Shown here one piece after another: positions 1,950 to 64,000 of a DNA stretch of 64,000 nucleotides; within the stretch, counting starts at the first letter, position 1; each line of letters begins with the position of its first letter. Origin of the DNA: Octopus vulgaris (taxonomy: Eukaryota). Location: contig OX597825.1 of NCBI GenBank assembly GCA_951406725.2, positions 60,822,001 to 60,886,000 on the forward strand, in the 5' to 3' direction. The notes beneath the pieces were generated by a model. It had not been told where the DNA came from and searched no databases. It worked only from the letters and a program-made list of their open reading frames with translations. The position numbers and the translations under genes are program-made.

Positions 1950-2364
1950 TAAATTATTATTTTCATTGAAACTTCTTCACTGTTATCGTTCTGTTAACGT
2001 TTTGGCGTTCAGACGTGTGTACTGGCATAGATGTAGCAACATATGATATTTTGTCTAGGTATATGCAGCTGATGAGGACAACTCAAATCTATGTTGTCAA
2101 ACGTATTTGAAGAGTCTGAAACCGGTACTGCATTATCCGATTCTAGGTTTTCCATTTTGCAGATGTTCTTCCTAGAGGTAAGACAAATTTTTTTCATGTT
2201 TGTTGCACACACGCGTCTTTGGTAGTATATACGCAGGGAAACTATACAATAGCGTCGTATTTATTACGATTGCTGTTTTCCAGTAAATATCGGTGCCTCG
2301 TTGTACCATTTATTTACTTTTATATGTATAATTTTACCCTTACGGGCTATCTTTTACTGGAAAA
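1947..2364 (+). mobile_element. Short non-coding hammerhead-bearing element (solo Penelope pLTR or retrozyme-like) between two (TA)n tracts
   Basis: About 415 bp of unique sequence bounded by (TA)n at 1898-1946 and 2364-2428; contains the HHR at 2063-2133. Confidence 0.6.
2063..2133 (+). ncRNA. Type I hammerhead ribozyme, canonical core
   Basis: ATGCAG-CTGATGA-GGAC(...TCAAAT..ATGTT-GTCA-AACGT-ATTTGA...)GTCT-GAAA-CCGG-TA-CTGCAT: perfect 6-bp stem I, extended stem II, palindromic ACCGGT stem III, GUA cleavage triplet (after 2127). Confidence 0.88.
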
Positions 2365-12206: not shown

Positions 12207-12244
12207 TAGATAAGAAAGTTTGTTTGGTAAAGCACGTGGGTGAA

Positions 12245-12583
12245 TATATAAGAAAATAGTAAAGTGTGAAAAAACGACAGAAGGCTTAAATGTTAAAAAA
12301 TATATATATTTGTGTCAAAATGTCTGGAGAATATTGGAAAAATTTTTTTTTCCCTTTCCTTAAAATGACATAATTTTAAAATTTTTAAAGAAATTACCGG
12401 TTTCGCGTGTAGCTTTTCAAATTTCTTGTGACGTTATGTTTATATTGCATGGAATTATCGTTGTTTTTATTTCCAGGAGATTTCTAAATAAGGGGAGGTA
12501 GTGAGTGATTTTTTCCGGTGTAGGGGAGATAATCGCTTAAAAAATTTTTTTCCCATTTCCTTGTTAATTTCTCTGTGTCAGTA
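12245..12583 (-). repeat. 3' pseudo-LTR of the Penelope-like element
   Basis: Reverse complement of 14031-14368 apart from homopolymer-length differences; overlaps the ORF stop codon. Confidence 0.95.
12388..12427 (-). ncRNA. Minimal type I hammerhead ribozyme, U3-A8 core variant
   Basis: AAGAAAT-TTGAAAA-GC-TACAC-GC-GAAA-CCGG-TA-ATTTCTT: perfect 7-bp stem I, 2-bp stem II, palindromic stem III; located in the pLTR as expected for Penelope-like elements. Confidence 0.82.
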
Positions 12584-14039
12584 TGTTCGGATGGTTGAGT
12601 CTGGGTTTGTACTTTTCAATGAAGAATGTTTCCTTGTTCAGTCTCATTTGTGTTGATGATCCGAAAGCACATTGGTAAAATGGGAAGATTAAAAATTGTG
12701 GCAGTAGTTGCTTTGCGCATTTCTCAATGTGCTCACTAAAAGGTATCATTCTATATTCTGGGAATGCAATCTGTTGTCGATGCAGTGTGCATCTGCGCCT
12801 GAGTGATAGTCCCGTGGAACCCACGTAGTCTTGGTGGCAGCCCGAGCATTTAATAACATAAATTATGTTTTCAGAGGCACAAGTAAAGTTAGATTTGATC
12901 TTAAATTTCTGTCCCTCTTTAAAGAAGAATTCTGATCCTTCCAATAGGTTAGGACATGTTGCACAGTTCGATCTACCACATTTTTTTACTTTTGCATCCG
13001 TAATTTTAGAAGACAATTTTGCCTTTGTGAGAATCTTTTTAAGTGATTTAGGCTGTTTGTAGCTTTTAATGATTTGGTGTATGTTTAGAATTTCCTTTAA
13101 TTTTGGGTTTTTATGAAGTATTGGTAAATTCTGGGTGATGATGGTGAAGGCTTCTTTGTTTCTGGGGTTGTATGTAGATATGTAAGGTAGTATTTTCGGG
13201 GAAGGTGTGTTGTTGTGTTGAACTTTTCTTAAAGTTTCTATGTTGATTTCTGTTGCACGTCTGATCCCATCCTCTATGGGTTGAGCTGGGTAATGTCTGT
13301 CAATTAGGGTGTTTTTGAGTTCTTGCAGTCTAAAGTTCCTGGTATTTTGTTCTGACACTATTGTGCATATCCTTCTTGCAAGGTTGAAGGGGATGTTTGT
13401 TTTAGTGTGTCTTGGGTGGCATGAATTAAAAAGAAGGTATTGTTTGGCGTCTGTGGCTTTGTAAAAAATGTCTGTTTCTATTTTAAGGTTAATTTTTTTA
13501 ATTAGTATATCCAAGAACGGGAGCTCCTTTTGGTTGTATTCCATTGTGAACTGTATATTTGGGTTTATGCTGTTCAATAGGTTTTTAAATTTTAGGAGTT
13601 TATCTATGTTTTCATTCCAGAGAATGAAACAATCGTCTAGGAATCGTTTCCAATTCTCTTTTATGTATTGAGAGAGGGAGTTTCCAAAGATTGATAGAGA
13701 TTCCTGGTAAATGATTATTTCCATGTATCCCATTGTTAAGTTCGCAATGACTGGTGCTGCCCTTGTACCCATAGCAATTCCGGATTTTTGACGGTAAAAT
13801 GTATTGTCAAACATGAAGTGGTTATTGTGTAGGATGAATTCAATTGATTTAGTAATGAATTCCTTACTGATCCTTTTTGGTATTTCTTCCGGAAATTGGT
13901 CTAACCAGAATTGTATTGCCTCCAGTCCATAATTATGAGGTATACTGGTATACAAGTTGACTACATCAAATGAAACCAGGATTGTTTCTTCCTTGGTTTT
14001 TTTTAAACCACCTTCCCAAAAAAATTTTTTTACTGACAC
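12564..14039 (-). CDS. Penelope-like reverse transcriptase plus GIY-YIG endonuclease (N-terminally truncated)
   Basis: RT motifs LVSFDVVNLYTSIP, GIAMGTRAAPVIANLTM, WKRFLDDCF, LPFLD, DIFYKATD..QYLLFNSCHP; Cys linker CGRSNCATC (Neptune-like); GIY-YIG NIIYVIKCSGCHQDYVGSTG..LRRRCTLH. The first ~14 aa come from the inversion junction. Confidence 0.95.
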   Translation of the reverse strand: MSVKKFFWEGGLKKTKEETILVSFDVVNLYTSIPHNYGLEAIQFWLDQFPEEIPKRISKEFITKSIEFILHNNHFMFDNTFYRQKSGIAMGTRAAPVIANLTMGYMEIIIYQESLSIFGNSLSQYIKENWKRFLDDCFILWNENIDKLLKFKNLLNSINPNIQFTMEYNQKELPFLDILIKKINLKIETDIFYKATDAKQYLLFNSCHPRHTKTNIPFNLARRICTIVSEQNTRNFRLQELKNTLIDRHYPAQPIEDGIRRATEINIETLRKVQHNNTPSPKILPYISTYNPRNKEAFTIITQNLPILHKNPKLKEILNIHQIIKSYKQPKSLKKILTKAKLSSKITDAKVKKCGRSNCATCPNLLEGSEFFFKEGQKFKIKSNFTCASENIIYVIKCSGCHQDYVGSTGLSLRRRCTLHRQQIAFPEYRMIPFSEHIEKCAKQLLPQFLIFPFYQCAFGSSTQMRLNKETFFIEKYKPRLNHPNILTQRN

Positions 14040-14361
14040 AGAGAAATTAACAAGGAAATGGGAAAAAAATTTTTTAAGCGATTATCTCCCCTACACCGGA
14101 AAAAATCACTCACTACCTCCCCTTATTTAGAAATCTCCTGGAAATAAAAACAACGATAATTCCATGCAATATAAACATAACGTCACAAGAAATTTGAAAA
14201 GCTACACGCGAAACCGGTAATTTCTTTAAAAATTTTAAAATTATGTCATTTTAAGGAAAGGAAAAAAAATTTTTCCAATATTCTCCAGACATTTTGACAC
14301 AAATATATATATTTTTTAACATTTAAGCCTTCTGTCGTTTTTTCACACTTTACTATTTTCT

Positions 14362-14368
<7 letters not shown>
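14031..14368 (+). repeat. Inverted 5' pseudo-LTR copy
   Basis: TACTGACACAGAGAAATTAA...CTATTTTCTTATATAT, the inverted duplicate of 12245-12583. Confidence 0.95.
14187..14226 (+). ncRNA. Minimal type I hammerhead ribozyme, U3-A8 core variant (second copy)
   Basis: Identical to 12388-12427; predicted cleavage after A14219 (GUA). Confidence 0.82.
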
Positions 14369-17070: not shown

Positions 17071-17116
17071 AACACAACGTTTCGACTGATATACCCGCCA
17101 GGATTCATCAGGTGTC
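17071..17116 (-). ncRNA. Type I hammerhead ribozyme (left arm)
   Basis: GACAC-CTGATGA-ATCCTGG-CGGGTATA-TCAGTC-GAAA-CG-TT-GTGTT; stem II partly mutated. Confidence 0.7.
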
Positions 17117-17151
17117 TTGGGAAAATTTTGAACCTGGATTCTCATTCCTAA

Positions 17152-17197
17152 GACACCTGATGAAGGCTGGAGGGTGTATCAATCGAAACGTTGTGTT
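17152..17197 (+). ncRNA. Type I hammerhead ribozyme (right arm)
   Basis: GACAC-CTGATGA-A-GGCTGG-AGGGTGTA-TCAATC-GAAA-CG-TT-GTGTT; palindromic AACGTT stem III, GUU site. Confidence 0.72.
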
Positions 17198-20100: not shown

Positions 20101-20850
20101 AGGCGGTGAGCGAGAAAATGATTAATGGTATTTCGTCTGCCGCTACGTTCTGAGTTCAAATTCCGCCGAGGTCGACTTTGCCTTTCATCCTTTCGGGGTC
20201 GATTAAATAAGTACCAGTTACGCACTGGGATCGATATAATCGACTTAATCCGTTTGTCTGTCCTTGTTTGTCCTCTCTGTGTTTAGCCCCTAATGGGTAG
20301 TAAAGAAATAGGTATTTCATCTGCCGTTATGTTCTAAGTTCAAATTCCGCCGAGGTCGTCGACTTTGCCTTTCATCCTTTCGGGGTCGATTAAATAAGTA
20401 CCAGTTACGCACTAGGATCGATTTAATCGGCTTAATCCGTTTGTCTGTCCTTGCCTGTCCTCTCTATGTTTAGCCCCTTGTGGGTAGCAAAGAAATAGGT
20501 ATTTTCTCCGTCTTTACATTCTGAGTTCAAATTCTGCCGATGTCAGCTTTGCTTTTTATCCTTTTGCGATCGATAAAATTAAAGTACCAGTTGAGTACTG
20601 GGGTCGATGTAATCGACTTAATCCGTTTGTCTGTCCTTGCCTGTCCTCTCTATGTTTAGCCCCTTGTGGGTAGCAAAGAAATAGGTATTTTCTCCGTCTT
20701 TACATTCTGAGTTCAAATTCCGCCGATGTCAGCTTTGCTTTTTATCCTTTTGCGATCGATAAAATTAAAGTACCAGTTGAGTACTGGGGCCGATGTAATC
20801 GACTTAGGCCCTACTACGAACTTGCTGGCATTGCATCAAAATTTGAAACC
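20101..20850 (+). mobile_element. SINE family B with four tandem ~185-bp units
   Basis: Unit starts GGTATTT at about 20127, 20311, 20498 and 20684. Confidence 0.88.
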
Positions 20851-30810: not shown

Positions 30811-31059
30811 ATATTTCAATACCAGTTGATTTCACACTGTGATGTGACCAACCAACTCTGGGATCATCAACTGTAATTAACATTTTAACCTCTGCTTCTT
30901 GAGCATTCAGTACGTTAGTTCTTGTGTATCATTATTGTGAGTTTATGGTAATTTTGGAGCCTTGGTTCAGATTTTAGCAAGTCGTATTATATACCCTACT
31001 GATTCTATATTTTACACACAAACACACACACGCACACACACACACACACACACACATAT

Positions 31060-49359: not shown

Positions 49360-49776
49360 ATTTCTTTACTGCCCATTAGGGGCTAAACACAGAGGGGACA
49401 AACAAGGACAGACACTTGGATTAAGTCGATTACATCGACCTCAGTGCATAACTGGTACTTAATTTATCAACCCCGAAAGGATAAGAGGCAAAGTCGACCT
49501 CGACGGAATTTGAACTCAGAACGTAACGGCAGACGAAATACCTATTTCTTTACTACCCACAGGGGGCTAAACACAGAGAGGACAAACAAGGACAGACAAA
49601 CGGATTAAGTCGATTATATCGACACCAGTGCGTAACTGATAATTATTTAATCGACCCCGAAAGGATGAAAGGCAAAGTCGACCTCGGCGGAATTTGAACT
49701 CAGAACGTAGAGGCAAACGAAATACTGCTAAGCATTTCGCCCAGCGTGCTAACGATTCTGCCAGATTACCACCTTC
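49360..49776 (-). mobile_element. SINE family B dimer inserted in an old family A body, 13-bp TSD
   Basis: ACTGGAGTCTATT at 49347-49359 and 49777-49789. Confidence 0.92.
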
Positions 49777-50193
49777 ACTGGAGTCTATTTCTTCAACTAA
49801 AACCTTCCAGTCGGCGCTCCAGAATAGCTGCAGTCCAATGACTGCAGCAAGTATAAGATAAAAGATAAAAAGCTGTGGTTGTTACCGATTTCCAAGCAGA
49901 GTTACTTTTTCCTTTTCGTTTAATATGAGAGACTATATAATTCAATACCGTAGTATCTCTCTGTTAACATGGAAAGAATTTATGATAGATTTAAACAGGG
50001 CTACATTCAAAACTACAAGATTAATTATTGTCACAAGAGTAAGAAGTACTAACACAGAGAGTGTAAAAGACTGAAATGTCTGACAGAGTTTGAGCTACGT
50101 AGAAAGGGGAAGTTTGTAAAATACTAAAAAAATTAGTGAGGCTAAGAGCTAGATATCATTACGATATATATTCTAATATTTTGACCAAATATA

Positions 50194-51005
50194 AGGCAGC
50201 GAGCTGGCAGAATCGTTAGCACGCCGGGCGAAATGCTTAGCGGTATTTTGTCTGCCGTTACGTTCTGAGTTCAAATTCCATCGTGGTCGACTTTGCGTTT
50301 CATCCTTTCGGGGTCGATTAAATAAGTACCAGTTACGCACTGGGGTCGATATAATCGACTTAATCCGTTTGTCTCTCCTTGTTTGTCTCCTCTGTGTTTA
50401 GCCCCTTGTGGGTAGTAAAGAAATGGGTATTTCGTCTGCCGAGGTCGACTTTGCCTTTCATCCTTTCGTGGTCGATAAATTAAGTACCAGTTGCATACTG
50501 GCGTCGATCGAATCGATTGGTCCCCCCCCCACCAAAATTTCGGTCCTTGTGCCTAGAGTAGAAAAGAATCGTTAGCACGCCGAGCAAAATGCTTGGTAGC
50601 ATTTCGTACGTCTTTACATCCTGAGGGCAAGTTCCACCGAGATCCACTTTGCCTTTCATTCTTTCGGATGGATAAAATAAATACCAGTTGAACACGGGAG
50701 GAGGGCAATGTAATTGATCAGCTTCCAACCCCAAAACTTCTGGTCTTGTGCTAAAATTTGAAACCAGTATTGTGACTGACCATTAGGCAGGGCAGCTGGC
50801 AGAATCGTTAACACACCGGGCAAAATACTTAGCGGCATTTCGTCTCTCTACGTTCTGAGTTGAGATTCCGCCGATGTCAACTTTGCATTTCATCATTCAG
50901 GGTCTATAAAATAAGTACCAGCTAAATACTGGGGTAGTTGTAATTGATTGACCTCCCCACTCCCGCCTCCGATCTTACTGACCTTGTGCTAAGAAGTGGA
51001 AACAA
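50194..51005 (+). mobile_element. Three consecutive SINE family B copies
   Basis: Starts at about 50194, 50566 and 50785. Confidence 0.85.
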
Positions 51006-61805: not shown

Positions 61806-61888
61806 CACACATTAACACATAAAATACATAATATATATGTATGTGTATATATATATATATATTTCTAAATTTAATTATTTAATTGTTA

Positions 61889-61925
61889 CAGTTGAAAAGG
61901 TCTCAAATGACCGAAACCGGTATTG
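61889..61925 (+). ncRNA. Minimal type I hammerhead, U3-A8 variant, in a ~115-bp element inside (TA)n
   Basis: CAG-TTGAAAA-GGTC-TCAAAT-GACC-GAAA-CCGG-TA-TTG. Confidence 0.78.
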
Positions 61926-61973
61926 AAATGTTCTTTATAAAATTATTTTAGCATTTTCTATCTTGACTTGTTT

Positions 61974-63962: not shown

Positions 63963-64000
63963 CAGTACCGGTTTCGGTCATTTTGAGACCTTTTCAACTG
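63963..64000 (-). ncRNA. Minimal type I hammerhead, U3-A8 variant (same family as 61889); the element runs off the window end
   Basis: CAG-TTGAAAA-GGTC-TCAAAAT-GACC-GAAA-CCGG-TA-CTG; 63908-64000 is the inverted homolog of about 61889-61980. Confidence 0.8.

Follow-up and report, generated by a model that had tools for sequence, protein, structure and literature searches.

The UUGAAAA motifs carried by a 64,000-nt stretch of Octopus vulgaris DNA (contig OX597825.1, positions 60,822,001 to 60,886,000; hereafter the window) are probably minimal type I hammerheads with a U3-A8 pair, located in the pLTRs of two related, recently active Penelope-like families, where slow cleavage as same-family dimers likely trims the element RNA. 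The U3-A8 swap in Penelope hammerheads, UUGAAAA core included, is already published, as described in PMC4209133 (Cervera and de la Pena 2014), and because both the variant and its Penelope context are in print the motifs carry little weight as a discovery. What is added here is how large the class is, its association with the ACCGGU palindrome, a limit that stem I sets on heterodimers, a U3-A17 pair predicted by folding and a natural series of alleles. The features of the window are the following.

2063..2133, plus strand: canonical C3-G8 hammerhead of a dispersed repeat family, with a long stem II and the ACCGGU palindrome
12207..14366, no strand assigned: Penelope-like insertion of family A, truncated on the 5' side, where an inverted 3' copy is attached, in (TA)n; ends approximate
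12207..12243, minus strand: tail of ~37 nt at the left end only, matching the 30-40 bp tail described in PMC8557442
12388..12427, minus strand: family A minimal type I hammerhead with a U3-A8 core; predicted cleavage after A17 at 12395
12564..14003, minus strand: C-terminal 479 aa of an RT + GIY-YIG-type ORF, equal to residues 333-811 of the family's 811-aa frame
14187..14226, plus strand: the same family A hammerhead, identical in sequence, within the inverted 3' copy; cleavage predicted after 14219
17071..17197, cores at 17111 (-) and 17157 (+): two minimal hammerheads placed head to head, both canonical (CUGAUGA) and with ACGU as 4-nt palindrome
61885..61929, plus strand: family B hammerhead with a U3-A8 core, in a 3'-end fragment of ~120 nt between TA repeats
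63963..64000, minus strand: second family B hammerhead; the fragment runs on beyond the window end

Four UUGAAAA...GAAACCGGUA motifs occur in the window, at 12420 (-), 14194 (+), 61892 (+) and 63997 (-), which bears out the original observation that TTGAAAA stands in place of CTGANGA in the pLTR hammerheads and in those at 61889 and 63963. All four fit the core N3-UGA-N-N8-A...GAAA...UH, as UUGAAAA...GAAA...UA with a complementary 3-8 pair. The family A motif consists of TTGAAAA, stem II GCTACACGC and GAAACCGGTA at 14194-14219 (+) and 12420-12395 (-), the two sequences being identical, with a 7-bp stem I (AAGAAAT/ATTTCTT). The family B motif consists of TTGAAAA, stem II (GGTC/GACC) and GAAACCGGTA at 61892-61922 (+) and 63997-63966 (-), with a stem I (CAG/YTG) of 3 bp followed by a mismatch and further pairs; the copy at 61885..61929 has a G.U at pair 2.1-1.1. 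Stem II contains G10.1-C11.1 in both families, spanning 4 bp in B (-4.0 to -4.6 kcal/mol) and only 2 bp in A, where it is not stable when folded alone. The sequences thus agree with the claim of different stems joined to the same GAAACCGGTA end, an end common also to the canonical hammerhead at 2063, whose CUGAUGA core at 2069 (+) has a 41-nt stem II region. The pattern TTGA.AA.{6,45}GAAACCGGTH has four matches in the window and none in each of 200 first-order Markov sequences, so these motifs are not chance occurrences. A TTGATGA site at 30870 (-) was considered as a further motif and excluded from the count, as it has no proper stem III and is no real family B match.

Searches built on CUGANGA had been expected to miss the variant, and they do: Rfam returned no hammerhead match for the family A copy at 14194, and the first descriptor of Cervera missed the variant too. 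Among the Rfam hammerhead families (clan CL00010), HH9 gave 18.4 bits for family B and 22.9 bits for the hammerhead at 2069, both below the threshold of 52, and in a scan of the whole window the 150 matches listed, out of 338, were microsatellite noise.

The family A hammerheads of the window lie in an insertion with TA repeats adjoining both ends and inverted arms at 12340-12583 and 14031-14274 that agree at 99%. A frame of 505 aa without stops runs along its minus strand (14081-12564) and matches RVT_1. Many ORFs of the family are 99-100% identical, and its 811-aa frame is open in several genomic copies, with 85 scored matches 98-100% identical. RVT_1 is above cut-off for families A and B, the C-terminal GIY-YIG domain is below the Pfam cut-off of 22.6 (13.9 and 20.8 bits, respectively), and a CX4CXXC linker reads CGRSNCATC in A and CGRPNCGIC in B. 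The family A hammerhead is on the minus strand, sense to the ORF, with U3 144 nt past the stop, and in ORF-selected copies UUGAAAA is fixed and the motif is 3' of the RT/endonuclease ORF (34 of 34 hammerhead matches in 30 of 30 loci, some of which overlap and one of which is the window). Fuller copies carry two direct-orientation hammerheads ~4.0 kb apart (loci L161 and L162), the upstream one 211 nt ahead of the ATG of a 451-aa first ORF; direct tandem hammerheads of families A or B were seen in L161, L162, L166 and L184. At L161:3641-4996 (-) the ATG-started first ORF overlaps the ATG-less 811-aa RT/EN frame, suggesting a frameshift or a splice. In contigs of run X2, window positions 12230-12900 show 20 A>G differences that cluster where the inverted repeat lies, a pattern that RNA editing might produce. 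In the contigs of four runs, which cannot show RNA ends, no difference among those listed falls within the hammerhead.

The family B copies of the window are short 3'-end fragments, 93.6% (61885..61929) and 86.6% identical to the end of an intact element. Many copies elsewhere have an ORF open for 784 aa, and among 20 ORF-hit stretches the motif is on the ORF strand in 19 by a strict pattern and in all 20 by a looser one, the latter giving TTGAAAA in 22 of 23 matches from the 20 ORF-selected loci. Where both lie in one stretch the ORF end and the motif are ~570-860 nt apart, and tandem units of 4.4 kb occur on one strand.

The two families had been taken to be unrelated, which does not hold. 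Their RT/endonuclease proteins share 57% amino-acid identity over 771 aa, so A and B are related Penelope-like elements, with 3' UTRs that have little in common beyond the core. A third U3-A8 family (one locus, L015) is 57% identical to both, and of the C3-G8 families the L235 family is 47% and L228, a fragment, 33-43% identical to the U3-A8 families. Trees of 5 and 7 rows, both omitting two short rows, leave the relevant forks open, and the protein comparison fits one origin of U3-A8 in the Penelope-like group. The L235 family itself (L235:4961-4995 (-) and L186-L215) is a young Penelope-like family with a 775-aa frame, a 4,271-bp tandem period and 47% identity to A; 30 of its 31 matches combine a CCGAAGA core (U4C) with the palindrome AGUACU. 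For the 2069 family and the ACGU families, no convincing linked ORF was found in sets of 20 and 30 loci, nor in 19 further canonical loci apart from one endonuclease fragment.

By its linker and (TA)n targets, as set by the published description, the host element appears Neptune-like. It resembles the Neptune/Nematis EN+ elements described in PMC8557442 (Craig et al. 2021) in its C-terminal GIY-YIG, CX2-5CxxC linker and (TA)n targets, and the Penelope-like elements of that paper in its inverted 5'-truncated copy, one-sided 30-40 bp tail and hammerhead near the 3' end; the traits of EN+ Penelope-like elements present here thus include a pLTR or partial tandem, an inverted truncated copy and a one-sided tail. 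The nearest published hammerheads are those of the Cercyon Penelope-like elements of Schistosoma mansoni, in which, according to PMC4209133, U3-A8 replaces C3-G8 in ~1,300 hits. Cores given in Figure S3 of that paper include UUGAAAAA (PLE-linked), UUGAUAAA and UUGAAGAA (U3.G8). The octopus motifs share with them the type I fold, vestigial palindromic stem III, pLTR location and U3-A8 pair. However, the Cercyon U3-A8 examples in PMC4209133 have 4-nt palindromes, a long stem II and U or G at N17, whereas those described here have the 6-nt ACCGGU, a stem II of 2-4 bp, A at N17, about nine times more copies and a Neptune-like host element. Several other natural hammerheads with the same U3-A8 covariation are reported in PMC3088659 (Perreault et al. 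2011), which cites earlier in vitro activity and, in the parts concerned with this covariation, does not describe Penelope pLTR dimers. Small PLE-associated hammerheads with a short palindromic stem III, like those analyzed here, cleave as dimers according to the summary in PMC6765202 of Lunse, Weinberg and Breaker (RNA Biol 14:1499), and the same dimer model is adopted here. A literature search on U3-A8 returned Cervera 2014 alone, with Lunse et al. and Przybilski and Hammann 2007 outside its reach; a search combining hammerhead and octopus gave nothing on the motif among the papers listed.

Genome-wide, the counts are of pattern matches without a structure filter, which may overlap and which represent copies, not events. 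The exact 26-nt family A core has 690 matches in the 2.8-Gb genome and none in the reversed control. With the GAAACCGGTH end and a spacer of 6-30, U3-A8 gives 11,634 matches (control 118), C3-G8 438 (52), U3.G8 453 (69) and C3.A8 362 (90). The paired 3-8 states therefore far outnumber the mismatched ones, in agreement with the proposal that U3-A8 is a compensatory pair, and the single-change states are 25-30 times rarer than U3-A8. The high match counts reflect the copying of few masters, not independent events. A genome-wide dominance of U3-A8, which the figures of 11,634 and 438 taken by themselves might suggest, is ruled out by two other counts. First, ACCGGU with a spacer of 31-60 gives 1,483 matches over all cores (control 476), mostly C3-G8 among the matches listed. 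Second, the GAAACGTH end with a spacer of 6-36 gives 22,710 matches for C3-G8 (control 2,370) and 5,016 for U3-A8 (control 5,597), the control for this class being rough because the reversed sequence lacks CpG. The suggested count of U3-A8 against C3-G8 cores thus depends on the palindrome: U3-A8 leads with ACCGGU and C3-G8 with ACGU, and only with the 6-nt ACCGGU is U3-A8 enriched. The variant accounts for about nine tenths of the matches with ACCGGU and about one third of those in all the classes counted (ACCGGU and ACGU palindromes), and this third of the minimal hammerheads counted, two young autonomous families included, is what searches limited to CUGANGA would miss. The head-to-head pair at 17071-17197 belongs to a very abundant ACGU-palindrome repeat family, the commonest class genome-wide.

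The dimer reading makes specific demands on the RNA. A monomer would not form stem III (predicted P(15.1-16.1)=0.00 on folding). Two copies would join through their ACCGGU palindromes and exchange the arms of stem I, each 5' arm being matched with the 3' arm of the opposite strand, so that two cores arise. In folding, the minimum free energy homodimer of A and of B is a double hammerhead with a palindrome duplex of P=0.97, and the trans 2.1-1.1 pair has P=0.92 in A and 0.99 in B, conditional on bound strands. Among 21 hand-picked ACCGGU copies, at least three core-proximal stem I pairs form in 16 of 21 self combinations as against 48 of 420 cross combinations, the latter mostly among relatives, which shows that stem I is kept by covariation. 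Going by published work, U3-A8 would take the place of C3-G8, and cleavage would be aided by a chaperone or by the protein of the element; the hammerhead of an Anolis Penelope element, as reported in PMC11167929, cleaves only with protein present and relies on its 3-8 pair. If the upstream pLTR is cleaved, the RNA would gain a 5' end 211 nt ahead of the first-ORF ATG.

Several observations leave room for a different view, in which the motifs are hammerhead-derived and essentially non-cleaving, the fold being kept for dimerization or protein binding or simply carried along with the pLTR. U3-A17 pairing is predicted in both families (P=0.72 and 0.84 on folding), and the cleavage site in A and B, if any, follows GUA. 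A C3-G17 pair is the presumed cause of poor cleavage in minimal hammerheads, as stated in PMC3884650, and by analogy the U3-A17 pair would be predicted to slow cleavage in A and B. Moreover, in a subfamily ~97% identical to A the core is U3.G8 and the 3' arm lacks one base; an active dimer is not predicted for this subfamily, yet it has spread, accounting for 39 of the first 100 U3.G8 matches listed (counted by eye). The predicted U3-A17 pair and the spread of this subfamily argue for low or dispensable activity. The 2-bp stem II of family A points the same way, as do reports that metazoan minimal hammerheads have low in vitro activity (PMC4209133) and that in the Anolis element hammerhead mutants left in vitro insertion unaffected, with no reads ending at the cleavage site (PMC11167929). 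However, families with wholly different stems have all retained G5, A6, G12-A14, A15.1-U16.1 and a non-G N17, and by far most matches have a complementary 3-8 pair. We consider the essentially non-cleaving reading unlikely.

A more elaborate version of the dimer model, which we offer as speculation and judge rather improbable as a whole, gives the unusual features a regulatory role. The U3-A17 pair would act as a latch that keeps the dimer inactive until it is opened by the protein of the element; ACCGGU, as the stronger palindrome, would support the weaker core and let thousands of non-cognate pLTR RNAs trap one another in dead-end dimers joined by stem III only; and stem I would serve as a family code that restricts productive cross-cleavage to compatible families, B and 2069 being an example.

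It had also been proposed that heterodimers could form between families through the ACCGGU palindrome that they share, so that hammerheads of one family would activate those of another. The ACCGGU duplex is indeed strong (-8.3 kcal/mol, as against -1.7 for ACGU), and B and 2069 can form three stem I pairs at both cores. At L164:5234-5355 (-), a family B 3' end lies 96 nt upstream of a pLTR hammerhead of the U3.G8 A-subfamily on the same strand, a natural tandem of two families. However, an active heterodimer needs more than the palindrome, since stem I must pair across strands too: no core-proximal pairs form at either core in A x B or A x 2069, the L164 pair gives 0 and 2, and B and 2069 are more stable as folded monomers (-28.2) than as an active-like dimer (-25.1). 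By these models A x B pairing through the palindrome would at most be a dead end, and cross-family activation is very unlikely. A literature search for cross-family heterodimers of Penelope hammerheads found no paper, Lunse et al. being outside its reach.

Finally, the possibility that U3-A8 matches by chance, or is C3-G8 decayed by mutation in an AT-rich setting, draws on the 35% GC of the window and on CpG loss, which could give CUGACAA from CUGACGA (compare the tandem array at L022), but is exceedingly improbable given the empty Markov controls and the rarity of single-change states, and for A and B it is refuted by the fixation of U3-A8 in the youngest, ORF-intact families.

Closely related elements of this genome provide a natural allelic series, with U-A, U.G, C-G and C.A at the 3-8 pair and A, C and U at N17, so that the question of whether Penelope hammerheads must cleave becomes easy to test.

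Variation at the 3-8 pair also occurs in other repeats. A 359-bp tandem retrozyme-like repeat has C3-G8 in L019, C3.A8 in L022 (94%) and U3-A8 in L021 (88%) and L020, and a separate switch between C3-G8 and U3-A8 is visible within L019-L022; tandem retrozymes are tied to Penelope pLTRs in bioRxiv 10.64898/2026.07.22.740005, according to that preprint. Another repeat family (L029 and L124) has UUGAUAA (U3-A8) and UUGAUGA (U3.G8) cores in copies 74-81% alike. The window also contains an array of a 27-bp repeat with more than 200 copies, from ~32230 to at least 38900, and a dispersed repeat of ~245 bp at 20116-20358, 49495-49775 and 50193-50441, which includes an inverted pair 417 nt apart.
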